From a virus, in the UHGV virus genome UHGV-1367834: a stretch of 38,620 nucleotides of DNA; one strand, written 5' to 3'. Of the stretch, positions 6,227 to 30,535 are shown piece by piece (position 1 is the stretch's first letter; every line of letters starts with the position of its first letter). Both the position numbers and the translations under genes were made by a program. The notes below the pieces were generated by a model, which was given only the letters and a program-made list of their open reading frames with translations, had not been told where the DNA came from and did not search any database.

Positions 6227-6451
6227 ATGAAAAACAGATTCAAGATAGGACAATACGTAGAACTTAAAAATGACAATCACAATGGTATTGGTAGTAAAGG
6301 TGATAAGGTAGTTATACTAGCTAAACTATTTAAACTAGTAGATGGTGTAGATCTTATCTGTAGATTCTCTAATGGGTGTACAGAAGGTTTCTTACAACGT
6401 GAGTTGAAATTAGCAACAAAAACACTTGACAGAATCACATTAATAAAGTAG
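6227..6451 (+). CDS. hypothetical protein
   Basis: The track ORF runs 6179-6451. The ATG at about 6227 has the RBS AAGAGAGG at a proper spacing. Confidence 0.55.
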   Translation: MKNRFKIGQYVELKNDNHNGIGSKGDKVVILAKLFKLVDGVDLICRFSNGCTEGFLQRELKLATKTLDRITLIK

Positions 6452-6485
6452 AATAATAGTATAAACAAATTGGAGGAATTAACAC

Positions 6486-20588: not shown

Positions 20589-20659
20589 TCAATTCAATTG
20601 ATACACTTGTATCTGCTGGTGTCACCTGTCCTACCACAGGTGGTGTACTAGGGCAATTG
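20589..20659 (-). repeat. copy 1 of a 71-nt conserved 3'-terminal element (last four codons of the major tail gene plus 59 nt)
   Basis: Identical to 23561-23631 at 70 of 71 positions by eye. On the mRNA it reads CAAUUGCCCUAGUACACCACCUGUGGUAGGACAGGUGACACCAGCAGAUACAAGUGUAUCAAUUGAAUUGA. Confidence 0.8.
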
Positions 20660-21223
20660 ATTAATATTGTTTACTTTATCAACAAACTTATCAAGTGTTA
20701 ATGTTTCGCTTGAAACAGCACTCATGTATGCAAAGCCACGTGAATCTGTTACAAATGAACCTTCAATTGTTTCTGTGTTTGGTTCAGTACCACCAGATTC
20801 AGTTGTGTTCAATGCGATTTCTGGGTGGCTGAAACGTCCTTTAACTAAACCAAAGTACATTTCTTTACCGTCTGCACCGTCTGCAACAAATACTGCTGAA
20901 ACGTAAGGTGCTTCTGTATCTTCACCAACGATTGCAATACCATCTTCACCACGTTTAATACCTAAAATTTTCTCATAAACGTTGTCTTTATACAAGTCAA
21001 ATACGTTTAATGAAGCTGTTAACTCTCCAACTCCTTTAGCTGATACCCAAATTGGAACGTTTGACGCATAAACGGTTGTTTGTTCTGCTGAAATTCCTTG
21101 AATTGACGCTTCAATAGTACCGCCACCGCTTTTATCAATTGTGTATTTATCAACGCCAGTTCCGCCTACTTTAGGTACACTAATGATTGCTTTTTTAAAT
21201 CCTACTACAGCTATGATAACCAC
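20648..21223 (-). CDS. major tail protein
   Basis: 191 aa, Gly/Thr/Ser-rich and beta-rich, positioned between the tail-completion genes and the chaperone. The start is non-canonical: a GTG with GAGGAG only 1-2 nt upstream. Confidence 0.7.
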   Translation of the reverse strand: MVIIAVVGFKKAIISVPKVGGTGVDKYTIDKSGGGTIEASIQGISAEQTTVYASNVPIWVSAKGVGELTASLNVFDLYKDNVYEKILGIKRGEDGIAIVGEDTEAPYVSAVFVADGADGKEMYFGLVKGRFSHPEIALNTTESGGTEPNTETIEGSFVTDSRGFAYMSAVSSETLTLDKFVDKVNNINQLP

Positions 21224-21255
21224 TCCTCAATATAGTTTATTTTGTTACTATAGTT

Positions 21256-21264
21256 ATTATAGCA
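21256..21264 (-). promoter_or_regulatory. extended -10 promoter (TGCTATAAT) for the major tail gene
   Basis: The reverse complement of ATTATAGCA lies immediately downstream of the GIY-YIG stop. Confidence 0.5.
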
Positions 21265-21286
21265 TACTATCATACTCTTGTGTGTG

Positions 21287-21841
21287 TTATGCGAATGTTA
21301 TTGAGAACCCCTTGTGTGTTTTTCGTTTACCTCGTAAGACTTTGTTAACATGTCCGCTATCACCATTGTGTTCTACACAGAACTCTCTAACTGTTCTATA
21401 ATAGAATGACTCTCCGTTGTTATTTGTACATATAATCCCATTAAATTTAAAACCATATATGGTGTCCATCTTTTTAAATTGTGACTCTTCTGGAAAAACT
21501 TGCTCTTTTCTCTTTTTTGATATATTATTTTTTGTAGTATCAGTATGATGTCTATTGTGCATTACACCATTACCACCAGCTGTTATATTATATCCATCAA
21601 CTGTAGTGTTGTATTTTTCTATTAACTTCATTTCTAGTTCGTTAGCTTCATCTTTTGTTAATCCTTCTCTTATTATAAAGTGGTTGAATCCATCCCATCC
21701 GTATTTTTGAATTGCATTGTAGAACTTGTGTGAACTACGATAGGTAGAACCGTTACCCCACCTAGTGTTTACTTTCTGCATAGTTTGACCAAAGTATTTT
21801 TTATTATTTTCTTTGTTTATATGCAAATATACTGTATACAT
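21287..21841 (-). CDS. GIY-YIG homing endonuclease
   Basis: N-terminus MYTVYLHINKENNKKYFGQT with an R/E/N catalytic block (RWGNG...YNAIQKYGWDGFNHFIIREGL...EANELEMKLI). The C-terminal region is DNA-binding-like. It is free-standing between the tail-terminator-like gene and the major tail gene. RBS GAGGTG. Confidence 0.85.
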   Translation of the reverse strand: MYTVYLHINKENNKKYFGQTMQKVNTRWGNGSTYRSSHKFYNAIQKYGWDGFNHFIIREGLTKDEANELEMKLIEKYNTTVDGYNITAGGNGVMHNRHHTDTTKNNISKKRKEQVFPEESQFKKMDTIYGFKFNGIICTNNNGESFYYRTVREFCVEHNGDSGHVNKVLRGKRKTHKGFSITFA

Positions 21842-21867
21842 TTAATCACCTCATGTATACAGTATAT
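21827..21867 (-). promoter_or_regulatory. perfect 15-bp inverted repeat enclosing the GIY-YIG RBS and start codon, with an embedded TGATATACT -10
   Basis: ATATACTGTATACAT (21827-21841) and ATGTATACAGTATAT (21853-21867) are exact reverse complements. The 11-nt spacer carries the SD sequence GAGGTG. The 3' arm on the mRNA begins with the AUG. Confidence 0.6.
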
Positions 21868-21882
21868 CATAATTTTTATGAT

Positions 21883-22248
21883 TTAGACAACTCTTTGTGT
21901 GATTACGTAACGTTTCACAATGCGACTGGCTCCCTCTAGGTCTGGTTCATATGTCTGTGTACTAAATGAACATTGTACGTTATCAGCACGCATTGTCTTA
22001 TCAATTGCTAGATAGTATTTATCCAACATTGTCAAATCTTCAACCCACAAATCAACTTGGATATAGGTTGTGTAATAATTTGGGTCTGCACTTGCGTATG
22101 CGTGATAGTCCATGTCTAACTCTGTGATTCTACCTACTGGCAACTTAGGAAGTGATACAAATTCATTTGGTACCTCGTTAGTAAACCAGTTGACTTCTGG
22201 GTGTGCTTCATTAAGTATCTGCGCCACTTGTAAAATAGGTAATGTCAT
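21883..22248 (-). CDS. tail completion / tail terminator-like protein
   Basis: 121 aa; the call rests on position upstream of the major tail gene. Confidence 0.45.
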   Translation of the reverse strand: MTLPILQVAQILNEAHPEVNWFTNEVPNEFVSLPKLPVGRITELDMDYHAYASADPNYYTTYIQVDLWVEDLTMLDKYYLAIDKTMRADNVQCSFSTQTYEPDLEGASRIVKRYVITQRVV

Positions 22249-23255: not shown

Positions 23256-23290
23256 ACCTCCTTAGTTAAAAAGAGGGCTTAGCCCTCTTT

Positions 23291-23494
23291 TTATTTTCCA
23301 GCTGCTGCAGTTGTAGTGAATTGTGGTACATCTACTTTGCTAGATTCTGGCTTACCATCTTCAATTGCTGTTACTTGAAAATCACCTTTGCTATATAGTG
23401 TTTCTGCTGTTAAACCTGTGATTTTTACTGGTGACGGTTGTTCAGTCACAATCTTTTCACCTGTTTTCTTGTATACGTTAAATACTTTAGCCAT
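23291..23494 (-). CDS. hypothetical small structural-module protein
   Basis: 67 aa between the capsid and connector genes, with its own RBS, downstream of a terminator. Confidence 0.45.
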   Translation of the reverse strand: MAKVFNVYKKTGEKIVTEQPSPVKITGLTAETLYSKGDFQVTAIEDGKPESSKVDVPQFTTTAAAGK

Positions 23495-23520: not shown

Positions 23521-23550
23521 AAAAGAGGTAAGGCGAATGCCCCACCTCTT
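23521..23550 (-). terminator. intrinsic terminator after the capsid gene and its conserved 3' element
   Basis: On the minus strand the hairpin AAGAGGTGGGGCATTCGCCTTACCTCTT is followed by TTTTAAAATAT. Confidence 0.55.
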
Positions 23551-23631: not shown

Positions 23632-24852
23632 TGGTGTTAATGTAATGAATTTACCAGCGTTTTTGTCTACTACTTTAGCATCAAAACGCATGAAGATTGC
23701 TAAGTATTGACCGTAAATTTCGTGGTCAATCCAACGAGCAGTAGTTTCAGCACGATTGAAGAATGTTGCAAATGCTACTGGGTCGCCTAAGAATGCCACT
23801 TTATCACCTTTGTTACCTAACATTTCATCTTTCAACACTGTTACTGGAACACCAAACAATGATTTACCAGACTGTGCTGTAATGTCAGTTTGTAATAAGT
23901 AACGACCTTCACCGTCTTTCATGATGTCAACTGCGTTGTAGAATGATTGAGTAACAATTAATTCTAAACCGTAAGCTGGGTCGAAACCAGTGTTGATTTG
24001 AGTTTTGATATCATCTAATGATTTAGCTGTTACTGCTGTAGCTGTTTTTAACAAGTTAGCTAAAACAAAGTTAGTTGTGTTTAAGCCTTGACGTTGTACT
24101 GAATCAGCAATAATTCCAGCTAAGTCGTCCGCGGAATCATCTAATGATTCTTGTGATACAACAATTTGACCACGGTAAGTTGATACGTTGTAAGGTACTT
24201 CTTCAAATTCAGGTTTTGCCAATGCTGGGTTTTTTGCCAACTCTTCAACTGTCACCATTTTTGCAGTAGTTGATTTCAAGATTGGGTATTTACCGCCAGA
24301 AGTTTTTACTTTGATACTATTCACTTTATTACGTAAGTCAACAACTGTTTCTGGTAATTTACGTGCTTTTGTGATAATATCTTCTGGAATAATTGCTTCT
24401 GCGTCTGTTGATTTAACTTGTCCGTCACCAACCGCACGTGTTTCGTTAAATGATTTTACGCTAGTTGATTTTGAAGTTACGTAGTCTAAAAAGGCACGTT
24501 GTTCTGTTACTGGCTCTGCTAACTCTTTACCATTGATTTTTACTTTCTCCATGTCAATATCTTCTCCTTTTACGTTCTCTAGTGAACGTTTTTCTTTCTT
24601 TGGTTCTTCCTTTGGTTCTTCCTTTGGTTCGTCTTTGACTTCGTCCTTTGGTTCTTCTTTAGGTTCTTCTTTAGGTTCTTCCTTTTTGACCTCGTCTTTA
24701 GGTGCTTCTGCTTTATCTTTTGCACGTTCTTTGTTTTCAGCTGGTGTTTCATCTTTCAAAGCTTCTAACTGTTCAATAACTTTTTTAGCTTCGTCAAGTT
24801 TACCTTCTGCCAACAAAGATTTTGCTTGCGCTTCTAACTCTGCCTTATTCAT
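23620..24852 (-). CDS. major capsid protein (HK97 fold) with an N-terminal scaffold-like coiled-coil/delta region containing (EEPK)n repeats
   Basis: 410 aa. The N-terminal roughly 100 aa is a charged coiled-coil with PKEEPKEEPKDEVKDEPKEEPKEEPKKE. The remainder is of HK97 capsid type (...GQIVVSQESLDD..., ...FDAKVVD...). RBS AAGGAG. Confidence 0.8.
   Translation of the reverse strand: MNKAELEAQAKSLLAEGKLDEAKKVIEQLEALKDETPAENKERAKDKAEAPKDEVKKEEPKEEPKEEPKDEVKDEPKEEPKEEPKKEKRSLENVKGEDIDMEKVKINGKELAEPVTEQRAFLDYVTSKSTSVKSFNETRAVGDGQVKSTDAEAIIPEDIITKARKLPETVVDLRNKVNSIKVKTSGGKYPILKSTTAKMVTVEELAKNPALAKPEFEEVPYNVSTYRGQIVVSQESLDDSADDLAGIIADSVQRQGLNTTNFVLANLLKTATAVTAKSLDDIKTQINTGFDPAYGLELIVTQSFYNAVDIMKDGEGRYLLQTDITAQSGKSLFGVPVTVLKDEMLGNKGDKVAFLGDPVAFATFFNRAETTARWIDHEIYGQYLAIFMRFDAKVVDKNAGKFITLTPQLP
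24596..24705. repeat. imperfect 15-nt tandem repeats (GGTTCTTCCTTTGGT-like) encoding the capsid (EEPK)n region
   Basis: Visible reiteration of TTCTTCCTTTGGTTC and TTCTTCTTTAGGTTC units. Confidence 0.6.
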
Positions 24853-24891
24853 GCTGTAAACTCCTTTACATATTATTTTCTTACTAAAGAT

Positions 24892-24900
24892 AGTATATCA
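24892..24900 (-). promoter_or_regulatory. extended -10 promoter (TGATATACT) for the capsid gene
   Basis: The reverse complement of AGTATATCA lies about 40 nt upstream of the capsid ATG and after the protease stop. Confidence 0.45.
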
Positions 24901-24928
24901 TGAACAAGGTGAGTTGTGGGCGTTACTC

Positions 24929-25534
24929 TTACAAGGTTGCTAGTCGTAACTGTAATTCTAGTTTGCGTTTTTCCATTTCGTTTACTTCCATGTTTTCAAG
25001 TGAGCGTTTAGCCACTGCAACATCTGTGTCGTCGTATGCTGGGATTGAAACCAGTGATATTTCAGCTAGTGTATTGATTTTTTTGATAGTTCTAACTGGT
25101 TTACCGTCTCTCCGTTCCCACTCATCTTCCGCAACCGTAAAGCCAAATGAACATTGACTAAGGTCACCACGTTTTACAAGTTCCATAACATCATTTCCAA
25201 GTGTTGTATTTGGTAACTCACAACGGAATTTCAAACCTACTTCATCAACTGATAATTGAAGTGTACCACTCTTTGTTCTTCCAAGTAAGTTGCCTGAATC
25301 ATGGTTTAAAAATAATTTTACATCTTCCATATCAACACCGTCTAATGCTCTTGCGTCAATAGTCTCAATAAAACCACCTAGGTCTTTTGATGGTGTATTG
25401 AATTTTAATGCGTAACCTTCAACAATATTGTTGTCGTTTATGAACTCTTGCAGTTGTCTAATTTCCAGTTGCGTCTGTTTCATTCTCGTACACTTCCTTT
25501 TCTTCACTCTCTGTTTTAACTGTTGTTTCGCCAT
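24929..25534 (-). CDS. prohead maturation protease (HK97/S78 family)
   Basis: GYALKFNTPSKDLGGFIETIDARAL...LFLNHD..NLLG is the classic N-terminal signature of the prohead protease. The track ORF overlaps the portal gene; the true start may be the ATG about 17 codons in, at roughly 25483. Confidence 0.8.
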   Translation of the reverse strand: MAKQQLKQRVKKRKCTRMKQTQLEIRQLQEFINDNNIVEGYALKFNTPSKDLGGFIETIDARALDGVDMEDVKLFLNHDSGNLLGRTKSGTLQLSVDEVGLKFRCELPNTTLGNDVMELVKRGDLSQCSFGFTVAEDEWERRDGKPVRTIKKINTLAEISLVSIPAYDDTDVAVAKRSLENMEVNEMEKRKLELQLRLATL

Positions 25535-29512: not shown

Positions 29513-29986
29513 TTAACCTTGTGTGCGCATTTTAAGCAATTGACCTAGTGGGTCTTTTGATTCATCTTCAACTTCTTTTGGTGCTACCAATTTTAATCTT
29601 GAATTGATAGTTAAACCTAGGTCATTTGTTGCACTTTTAATTTGCTTACTATAACCCATCATGGCGGTTACTTTGGGGTTCAGTTTTCCGTCCTCTGTCA
29701 CTTCACCCTCAATAGAGACCTCCTCTGCTAATTTACTATATAAGTAAACGTAGTTACAATAAGAAACCAGTGTTTGTGAATCTAACTCACTAAGCGGTAA
29801 TGACCCAGCAAAGTTACCAATTCTTTCCCATTCTGGATATGCACCCCTTAACAACCCCATTGGAAAATATGAAAAGTCTAAAGGTTCGTAATTATATAAC
29901 TTCTCCTCTTCTTTTTTCTTTTGAAATTGTTGTTCTTGTGTTAAATTACCCTGTTGTGCATTTAATAACTTACGTGGTCTACCCAT
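29513..29986 (-). CDS. terS: terminase small subunit (P27-like)
   Basis: 157 aa. The basic N-terminus MGRPRKLL, its size and its position directly upstream of terL resemble P27-family TerS. RBS AAGGAGGTG. Confidence 0.7.
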   Translation of the reverse strand: MGRPRKLLNAQQGNLTQEQQFQKKKEEEKLYNYEPLDFSYFPMGLLRGAYPEWERIGNFAGSLPLSELDSQTLVSYCNYVYLYSKLAEEVSIEGEVTEDGKLNPKVTAMMGYSKQIKSATNDLGLTINSRLKLVAPKEVEDESKDPLGQLLKMRTQG

Positions 29987-30479
29987 TATTTTTCACCTCC
30001 TTATATTTAAAGGTGTAACCTCCACATGTTTTGCGCTTACCTTTTAAAACTTTTACAATTGAACCATCATCAATTTTCAAATCTCTAGCGCAACCTCTAA
30101 TTGAATCATACTCAATTCCATTTGAACAAATTATTTGTTTTGATTTTTGTGTTTTCTGCTGTGTTTCAATTTGTCGTTTGGTTCTTGTTCCATGATTGAT
30201 ATTCTCTTTAGATGTTGACCATTCTAGGTTAGATACAAAATTATTTGTTTTGCATTCATCAATATGGTTTACCTGTGGTTTGTTATCTGGGTTTGGTATA
30301 AATGCTTCTGCAACTAAACGGTGTACCCTCCTAAAGTGTGCTTTATTATCTTTCCACAATGTAACTGTCTTATATCCATCTTTGTCAATATTTTGTTTTA
30401 ACCGTTTGACGTTGTTATATACATTACCATAGTTGTCAACGTAGTATCTACCTTTAAATTCTAATACATCTTTCTTCAT
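29979..30479 (-). CDS. HNH homing endonuclease (NUMOD4/HNH_3 type)
   Basis: Motifs [32 protein letters not shown]...NINHG, C-terminal tail GGYTFKYK. The likely start is the second ATG (MKKDVLEF...) with RBS AGGAGG. A TGTTATACT -10 lies about 25 nt upstream. Confidence 0.8.
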   Translation of the reverse strand: MKKDVLEFKGRYYVDNYGNVYNNVKRLKQNIDKDGYKTVTLWKDNKAHFRRVHRLVAEAFIPNPDNKPQVNHIDECKTNNFVSNLEWSTSKENINHGTRTKRQIETQQKTQKSKQIICSNGIEYDSIRGCARDLKIDDGSIVKVLKGKRKTCGGYTFKYKEVKNNG

Positions 30480-30504
30480 TGTATAACCTCCTATATAATA
30501 TTTA

Positions 30505-30517
30505 ATAGTATAACACA
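30505..30517 (-). promoter_or_regulatory. extended -10 (TGTGTTATACT) for the HNH gene upstream of terS
   Basis: Read on the minus strand just upstream of the HNH RBS. Confidence 0.4.
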
Positions 30518-30535
30518 TTATATAATAGGTGTAAA

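Follow-up and report, generated by a model that had tools for sequence, protein, structure and literature searches.

Phage T4 provides the closest described systems in which the 5'-end of a transcript decides whether a start site is open. In the case of T4 I-TevI, a hairpin forms on early and middle read-through transcripts, whereas transcripts from the late promoter are translatable; the logic of this gate has been established experimentally, and similar arrangements have been reported for I-TevII, I-TevIII, T4 segB and Aeh1 mobE (PMC2988022). Likewise, hairpins sequester the ribosome-binding site (RBS) of the T4 late genes e (lysozyme), soc, 39, 25 and 26 on long early and middle transcripts (PMC2988022). 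Here we describe a candidate gate of this type at the start codon of a homing endonuclease gene (HEG) in the virus genome UHGV-1367834, analyzed as one stretch of 38,620 nucleotides (the window), which belongs to an Enterococcus siphophage of the Efquatrovirus type with 98% identity to phage TwoStep over the region examined. The HEG is a free-standing, intact open reading frame (ORF) of the GIY-YIG family, encoding 184 amino acids at positions 21287–21841; the gene and all its signals lie on the minus strand, which corrects the original prediction made from the letters of this locus. On balance, we consider it probable that a promoter embedded in a hairpin gates the HEG start codon. Our literature searches found no description of such a gate for Enterococcus phages.

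The element in question is an exact 15-bp inverted repeat, ATATACTGTATACAT (21827–21841) and ATGTATACAGTATAT (21853–21867), with a spacer of 11 nt; in the minus-strand RNA the order is AUAUACUGUAUACAU-GAGGUGAUUAA-AUGUAUACAGUAUAU. It represents the longest perfect inverted repeat anywhere in the window, and a perfect inverted repeat of at least 15 bp with a loop of 3–60 nt occurred in only 3 of 300 simulated windows (composition-matched first-order Markov sequences of the window). The 5'-arm (21853–21867) begins with 7 nt that comprise an A and the −10 hexamer of a promoter motif, the remainder being the discriminator region; the loop (21842–21852) holds the Shine-Dalgarno (SD) sequence GAGGUG (21852–21847), and the 3'-arm (21827–21841) reads AUG UAU ACA GUA UAU, that is, the start codon and codons 2–5 (MYTVY), with which the GIY motif begins. 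This amounts to an unusually compact triple overlap, as the same 15 nt are −10 and discriminator, and their complement both pairs with them in the RNA helix and encodes the catalytic GIY motif. Predicted folding energies are −16.9 kcal/mol for the hairpin alone and −19.3 kcal/mol in a 101-nt context (z = −3.55). The original prediction of two exactly complementary 15-mers, a loop containing the SD and a 3'-arm starting at the AUG is thus borne out, but not its placement of the RBS inside the helix: the SD is predicted to be unpaired in the loop (probability about 0.9), and the helix takes in only the AUG and the next 12 nt, i.e., codons 2–5. Reading the hairpin as an intrinsic terminator was rejected, as it has just two G-C pairs, lacks a U-tract and went undetected by the terminator scan. 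Translational coupling was likewise dismissed. In the window, 15 nt separate the upstream stop codon from the helix, a distance at which a ribosome terminating there could not open the helix; in lineage L182 only 5 nt lie between the two, and coupling is not conserved.

The resemblance to T4 I-TevI, encoded in the td intron, extends to several features. In both cases the endonuclease is of the GIY-YIG family and its gene lies within a longer host transcription unit; in T4, and by prediction in the window, a stable hairpin covers the initiation region only on transcripts started upstream, and a promoter just upstream of or in the hairpin gives rise to RNA too short to form it. Like segB and mobE, the gene in the window is free-standing. 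The cassette is probably a further case of the promoter-in-hairpin control already known for phage homing endonucleases, and would extend a control principle of T-even coliphages to a Gram-positive siphophage with host-type promoters. The differences are equally evident. The promoter is a host-type extended −10 (TGATATACT), whereas T4 uses a late promoter; the T4 structures sequester the RBS, whereas here the helix lies over the AUG and codons 2–5 and leaves the SD free in the loop. Unlike in I-TevI, the 3'-arm consists of codons of the GIY catalytic motif and the 5'-arm of the −10 hexamer itself, and no operator resembling the homing site was found. In contrast to T4, the setting is a phage of a Gram-positive host, where the gate is predicted from sequence and folding, and the read-through RNA would stem from a structural, presumably late, operon, so that the temporal sense of the control may be opposite. 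In this respect the original prediction had the precedent backwards when it described T4 late transcripts as those sequestering the RBS; it is the early and middle transcripts that are closed and the late ones that are open (PMC2988022). With e, soc, 39, 25 and 26 the cassette shares the principle that the transcript 5'-end determines access to the start site, but these are ordinary phage genes, not mobile ones, with T4-specific late promoters.

Several observations argue for a private promoter within the 5'-arm. The extended −10 motif (21861–21869, minus strand) has its hexamer in the arm and its TG outside the helix, and a −35-like TTGTCT (21885–21890, minus strand), at a distance of 18 nt from the −10, shares bases with the tail-terminator stop codon. 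In this genome, TGNTATACT occurs 11 times versus 2.45 expected and TGNTATAAT 14 times versus 4.2 expected; neither count was equalled in any of 100 shuffles, and the TGNTATA[AC]T class as a whole is enriched 3- to 4.5-fold. About 19 of the 25 extended −10 sites are intergenic or fall into the first codons of over-extended ORF calls, and these are co-oriented with, and 20–50 nt upstream of, an SD and start codon; sites in the early region show TTGACA or TTGACT at 17 nt. The TG of the HEG promoter is invariant in all 12 aligned lineages, with variable bases preceding it, and in L008, L011, L012 and L013 a TTGTYT stays 17 nt from the −10 despite a scrambled spacer. Because the motif is enriched and promoter-positioned, its TG invariant and the −35-like spacing kept, a private HEG promoter appears likely. 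The claim of an extended −10 in the upstream arm thus holds for the motif, its class and its position; the start itself, which we infer from the usual σA spacing of 5–8 nt past the −10, would fall at 21853–21856 on the minus strand, and RNA from this promoter would keep at most 4 nt of the 5'-arm.

We envisage the following scenario. The mobile GIY-YIG cassette would bring along its own host-type (σA, extended −10) promoter, whose −10 hexamer, together with the bases just after it, is complementary to the gene's own AUG and codons 2–5. RNA begun upstream would carry both arms, its obvious source being the structural-operon message that crosses the locus to express the connector and tail-terminator genes. 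On such RNA, a helix of 13–15 bp would lock the start codon, the SD in the loop being reachable but the AUG not loadable. RNA from the cassette's own promoter would start at about the last bases of the 5'-arm, form no helix and be translatable. Synthesis of the endonuclease would then follow the cassette's own promoter only and be insulated from transcription of the host operon.

Calculated opening energies are in line with this scenario. We computed the cost of single-stranding positions −18 to +13 on a long RNA that includes 80 nt of upstream sequence and on a short RNA starting 7 nt past the −10. In all 10 lineages examined, the predicted cost was 13.1–19.5 kcal/mol on the long versus 3.8–6.8 kcal/mol on the short RNA. 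For the window HEG it amounts to 17 kcal/mol on the long RNA, the third among 45 genes, and the long-minus-short difference of 10.5 kcal/mol is the largest among promoter-proximal genes of the window (capsid gene, 9.5; all others, ≤5.6 kcal/mol). The original notion that long transcripts are closed and own-promoter transcripts open is therefore supported by predicted energetics in every lineage examined, with the modification that the AUG region, not the SD, would be locked. As to the RNA that would meet this lock, there is no extended −10 on the minus strand between 24892 (the capsid promoter) and 21869, and the terminator scan gave no terminator-like site between the connector genes or the tail-terminator gene and the HEG. 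With no such site in between, RNA for the essential connector and tail-terminator proteins would have to enter the hairpin; the existence and abundance of a read-through RNA spanning both arms are what we infer from the sequence. Terminator-like hairpins were detected further upstream, at 23548–23530 and 23267–23293. The latter is a perfect 13-bp inverted repeat (AAAAAGAGGGCT / AGCCCTCTTTTT) with A and T runs alongside, akin to a bidirectional terminator, and sits between a small gene following the capsid gene and the connector genes; RNA reading through the connector genes and the HEG would be attenuated at this site.

Protein and pattern searches turned up many phage contigs of about 40 kb with an identical slot (tail terminator / HEG / major tail). 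The endonucleases encoded in this slot are 39–98% identical to the window HEG product, and at least 11 distinct lineages carry the module. TGATATACT and the 3'-arm ATGTATACAGTATAT are unchanged in all same-slot lineages, whereas the stretch from the upstream stop codon to the motif, the loop and the codons past the arm diverge; the loop varies in sequence and in length (11–16 nt), the SD always being contained within it. The helix comprises 15 bp in the window type, L008 and L013; 14 bp in L012, in the L023 type (including a U.G pair) and in L182 (including a G.U pair); and 13 bp in L011 and L024/L183. Within the 5'-arm, positions 1–7 are invariant and positions 8 and 11–15 variable, two variant types retaining a G.U pair. 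Beyond the slot, phage Bp29 harbors a 56%-identical HEG copy upstream of its helicase gene, again with TGATATACT and with a 10- to 11-bp helix onto the AUG. Here codon 3 is AUA instead of ACA (C to U) and position 8 of the 5'-arm is A instead of G, which is the sole 3'-arm substitution seen, and it is compensated. That the module moves with the gene to the other slot in Bp29 supports the gate reading. In the LG62 homologue (32% identical, one slot upstream), TGATATACTATACA is retained and pairing is down to about 6 bp. A repeat absent or unconserved in related cassettes, the outcome that the original prediction regarded as speaking against it, was not what we encountered: the module is conserved.

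Conservation extends to synonymous sites. Within codon positions 1–88, 40 codons specify a degenerate amino acid that is the same in all 11 lineages compared: all 4 arm codons among them were without synonymous change, compared with 4 of 36 elsewhere (Fisher p = 0.00077). Homologues that start with MYTVY but lack the 5'-arm use ACG, ACT or ACC, GTT or GTG, and TAC codons; since hairpin-less homologues resort to other codons, coding constraint is not the explanation for the invariant third positions in the 3'-arm. By the same token, freely varying bases follow the −10 in the remaining 24 extended −10 elements of the genome, so that promoter constraint does not explain the conserved bases past the HEG −10. 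Finally, the TG outside the helix is invariant and the discriminator outside the −10 largely conserved, which means that each of the two elements, promoter and helix, bears a signature unexplained by the other.

A number of findings nevertheless weigh against a helix-based gate. Covariation was not significant, with 0 compensatory pairs among 10 lineages and 1 among 12, a value of 1 being reached by 71 of 500 shuffles; 9–10 pairs are constant, 2 show wobble changes alone and 1 is compensated. The wobble-keeping synonymous changes ACA to ACG and GUA to GUG were never seen, which could mean that the constraint is on the sequence itself and not on pairing. The two most distant same-slot lineages, L103 (A.C) and L187 (U.U), have one internal mismatch each, so the helix is not strictly kept. 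Each arm is itself nearly palindromic (TATAC-N-GTATA), and an inverted repeat arises more easily from such sequences. With the SD exposed in the loop, repression would rest on AUG occlusion alone. Lastly, start-site sequestration as a family-wide trait had to be rejected: 39 distant GIY-YIG homologues compared with 362 neighboring genes gave median values of 7.8 versus 9.6 kcal/mol (one-sided p = 0.99), such that distant homologues show no general sequestration of their starts and the gate, as judged from these sequences, is specific to this lineage. In sum, the helix is supported by conservation, not by covariation, in the sequences at hand. Two types of 5'-arm variant can pair only as G.U, which is possible in sense-strand RNA but not in DNA; these favor an RNA in the sense orientation, although two mismatch variants also exist and the numbers are too small to decide. 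The conserved module, synonymous sites included, may act as an RNA hairpin or as a DNA-level palindrome.

The last point leads to the possibility that the inverted repeat is a DNA operator over the cassette promoter, bound for example by the endonuclease itself, with the RNA helix being incidental. The near-invariance of both arms without compensatory turnover and the unused wobble-compatible synonymous changes would fit this idea, as would the overlap of the repeat with the −10, where a repressor would act, and there is a precedent in I-TevI, a documented autorepressor acting via an operator over its own promoter (PMC2988022). Yet the motif is unique in the genome, where only the two arms match and matches with two mismatches are at chance level, and it has remained constant although the clade proteins differ strongly in their C-terminal, DNA-binding halves. 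The I-TevI operator shares 15 of 20 positions with its homing site; here, the closest 20-mer match within the empty site or its flanks reached 14 of 20, equalled by 187 of 300 shuffles, a weak negative as the true homing site is unknown. Moreover, homing endonucleases of the GIY-YIG family, I-TevI among them, recognize asymmetric sites as monomers, half-sites centered 26 bp apart would be unusual, and two 5'-arm variants lose DNA symmetry yet keep G.U pairs in the sense RNA. Because the motif is unique, dissimilar to the empty site and constant across proteins with divergent DNA-binding halves, a DNA operator is disfavored on sequence grounds, and we regard it as unlikely. We assign a similarly low probability to the view that the repeat has no dedicated function and is a by-product of a good −10 (TATACT) beside the near-palindromic TAT ACA GTA TAT (YTVY), perhaps arisen by a small local duplication and kept by promoter and coding constraints. 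The TATAC-N-GTATA in both arms makes them near-direct repeats too, the −10 half and the amino acid sequence are constrained independently, and covariation is not significant. What it fails to accommodate are the invariant third positions of codons 2–5 (p = 0.00077), given that hairpin-less homologues encode the same peptide otherwise, the conservation of positions 8–11 after the −10, unlike the free variation at the other 24 extended −10 sites, and the complementary 5' change that accompanies the sole 3'-arm change.

Two further explanations invoke a function of the RNA helix other than gating. It could be a processing or stability element of the structural operon, either a site of the RNase III type or a 3'-end protective stem for the connector message. 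The helix is stable and perfect and lies between cistrons of a long operon, which would suit such a role, and in lineage L018 it has survived deletion of the endonuclease ORF. This deletion, however, looks recent, its flanks being near-identical. Typical RNase III substrates are longer than an AU-rich helix of 13–15 bp, and the hairpin has no U-tract and was not called as a terminator; in addition, it accompanies the endonuclease gene to its place in the Bp29 replication module, and HEG-free phages do without a hairpin at this junction. We therefore deem a processing element rather improbable. The helix might also stimulate translation: on polycistronic RNA, an SD presented in the loop could serve ribosomes as a standby site, in keeping with an SD that is in the loop and unpaired across lineages. 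Initiation-region structure of such stability strongly inhibits translation, though, and here a helix of about −17 kcal/mol over the AUG to +15 would have to be melted before initiation, at an opening cost (13–19 kcal/mol) among the highest in the genome; a stimulatory role is accordingly very hard to credit. Returning to the start-codon gate, the clade itself supplies natural variants for testing it, namely full, wobble-containing and mismatched helices as well as relocated, deleted and frameshifted copies.

The HEG product bears the hallmarks of its family. Residues 1–85 match the Pfam domain GIY-YIG (PF01541; E = 2.9e-8, above the gathering score), residues 140–180 match PF22083 (I-HmuI NUMOD-like; E = 4.3e-8) as a separate C-terminal DNA-binding module, and the best PHROG families, 314 and 7168, are annotated as homing endonuclease. 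The catalytic residues Y2/Y5, Y16, R27, E70 and N85 are invariant in an alignment of 14 sequences; a sequence search of the PDB gave no match at E ≤ 0.01. In line with the original prediction, the Pfam and PHROG matches and the empty relatives identify a free-standing gene inserted between the tail-terminator gene (21883–22248, minus strand; phrog_78) upstream and the major tail gene (20648–21223, minus strand; Phage_TTP_1) downstream. Aligned with the HEG-free relatives MSF2 and vB_EfaS_159, which have a 78-nt intergenic region instead, the inserted cassette extends approximately from 21265 to 21882 (minus strand); similarity to the empty allele ends exactly at the tail-terminator stop codon and restarts near the major-tail promoter.

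Among the relatives listed, the HEG is present only in TwoStep, KEN07 and KEN02, and most relatives are without it. In TwoStep (L001) and KEN07 (L002) a run of A6 or A7 (at about 21450–21480 of the window) includes one additional A that splits the ORF, which could reflect decay, a sequencing error or slippage; the copies in the window and in KEN02 are intact. In the above-mentioned metagenomic phage L018 (IMG/VR UViG_3300045988_020245, positions 6390–6480), a natural and precise deletion of the HEG ORF has occurred between the near-repeats ATTTGCATA and ATTCGCATA, with both promoters and the intact 15-bp hairpin left behind as a footprint. Sporadic presence, frameshifted copies and clean deletion are what the life cycle of free-standing homing endonuclease genes usually looks like. 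For phage-therapy genomics, the cassette flags, among the structural genes of Enterococcus phages, a mobile nuclease equipped with a probable promoter of its own.

A second extended −10, TGCTATAAT (21256–21264, minus strand), with a late-type leader is located downstream of the HEG and serves the major tail gene; this combination was found in every clade member. T4 segG is a free-standing endonuclease gene with embedded promoters for a downstream host gene, gene 32 (PMC2988022), and the clade likewise keeps the major-tail promoter at the 3'-end of the HEG, although in the window it lies just after the ORF and not inside it as in segG. In L012 and L013, the major-tail extended −10 (TGATATAAT) overlaps the HEG stop codon, so that loss of the endonuclease would take away the promoter of an essential gene. 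Such promoter overlap is a retention device described for the T4 seg and mob genes. Several promoters of the structural region have in common a CCCACA or CACACA, located 17 nt before the −10, and, about 8–20 nt after the −10, a conserved leader motif TAGTAA[G/C]AAAA; these features may define a distinct late promoter class. Sites of this type lie on the minus strand at 24892, 21256, 20509, 27200 and 31899, and also in the HEG-free intergenic region of L004/L005; both the CCCACA/CACACA element and the leader motif are missing from the endonuclease promoter. At the major tail gene itself, the ATG is changed to ATA or ATC in most HEG-carrying phages (21223–21240 of the window, minus strand; L001–L003, L012, L013, L182–L184, L187), where the only in-frame start is a GTG abutting the SD (GAGGA-GTG or AAAGGAC-GTG), whereas HEG-free relatives have a normal SD-N10-ATG. 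This may represent an allele that resists cleavage and was co-converted along with the endonuclease, or else an unusual start codon.

The capsid gene, second to the HEG in the energetic comparison, shows a related leader. In the window (24852–24930, minus strand), CCUUGUUCAUG, which abuts the TG of TGATATACT (24900–24892), pairs with CAUGAAUAAGG containing the capsid AUG, and in other Efquatroviruses with different N-terminal capsid codons (L193, L194, alignment A7), the −10 region UCGUGAUAUAC pairs with GUAUGUCACG. These leaders fold with −28 to −29 kcal/mol (z = −3.1 to −3.7), and the window capsid start costs 18.8 kcal/mol to open on the long versus 9.3 kcal/mol on the short RNA. From these models, the capsid gene of this phage group appears to work likewise, its transcript 5'-end deciding on access to the start. 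A second free-standing endonuclease gene, of the HNH type (phrog_59) with a NUMOD-like C-terminus (29979–30479, minus strand, true start ATG at 30479), is absent from most relatives. Its extended −10 TGTTATACT (30515–30507) lies within an inverted repeat (30486–30530) whose 3'-arm carries the SD GGAGG; the long leader folds with −18.5 kcal/mol (z = −1.4, not significant), the short one with −1.2 kcal/mol. Given the likeness of the capsid and HNH endonuclease genes, promoter-embedded start-site locks may be general in this phage group. It is conceivable, if speculative, that such locks are a native regulatory grammar of Efquatrovirus-type Enterococcus phages that mobile endonucleases have adopted. 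If so, they would give Gram-positive phages that use σA only a general means to tie translation to the originating promoter. The capsid parallel hints that translational control in these phages may reach wider, in a layer as yet unstudied.

Some distant homologues of the HEG use other start arrangements. In the GIY-YIG genes of L033, L037, L045 and L055, TGnTATAAT is found 6 nt before the ATG and no SD is present, which suggests, from the sequence layout, that these endonuclease mRNAs are leaderless. In L186 (1440–1500), a 41%-identical homologue lacking the motif is located downstream of an endolysin gene, and its SD AAGGAGGA pairs with UCCUCCUU in a 16-bp hairpin followed by a U-run, such that the terminator-like stem of the upstream gene sequesters the SD.

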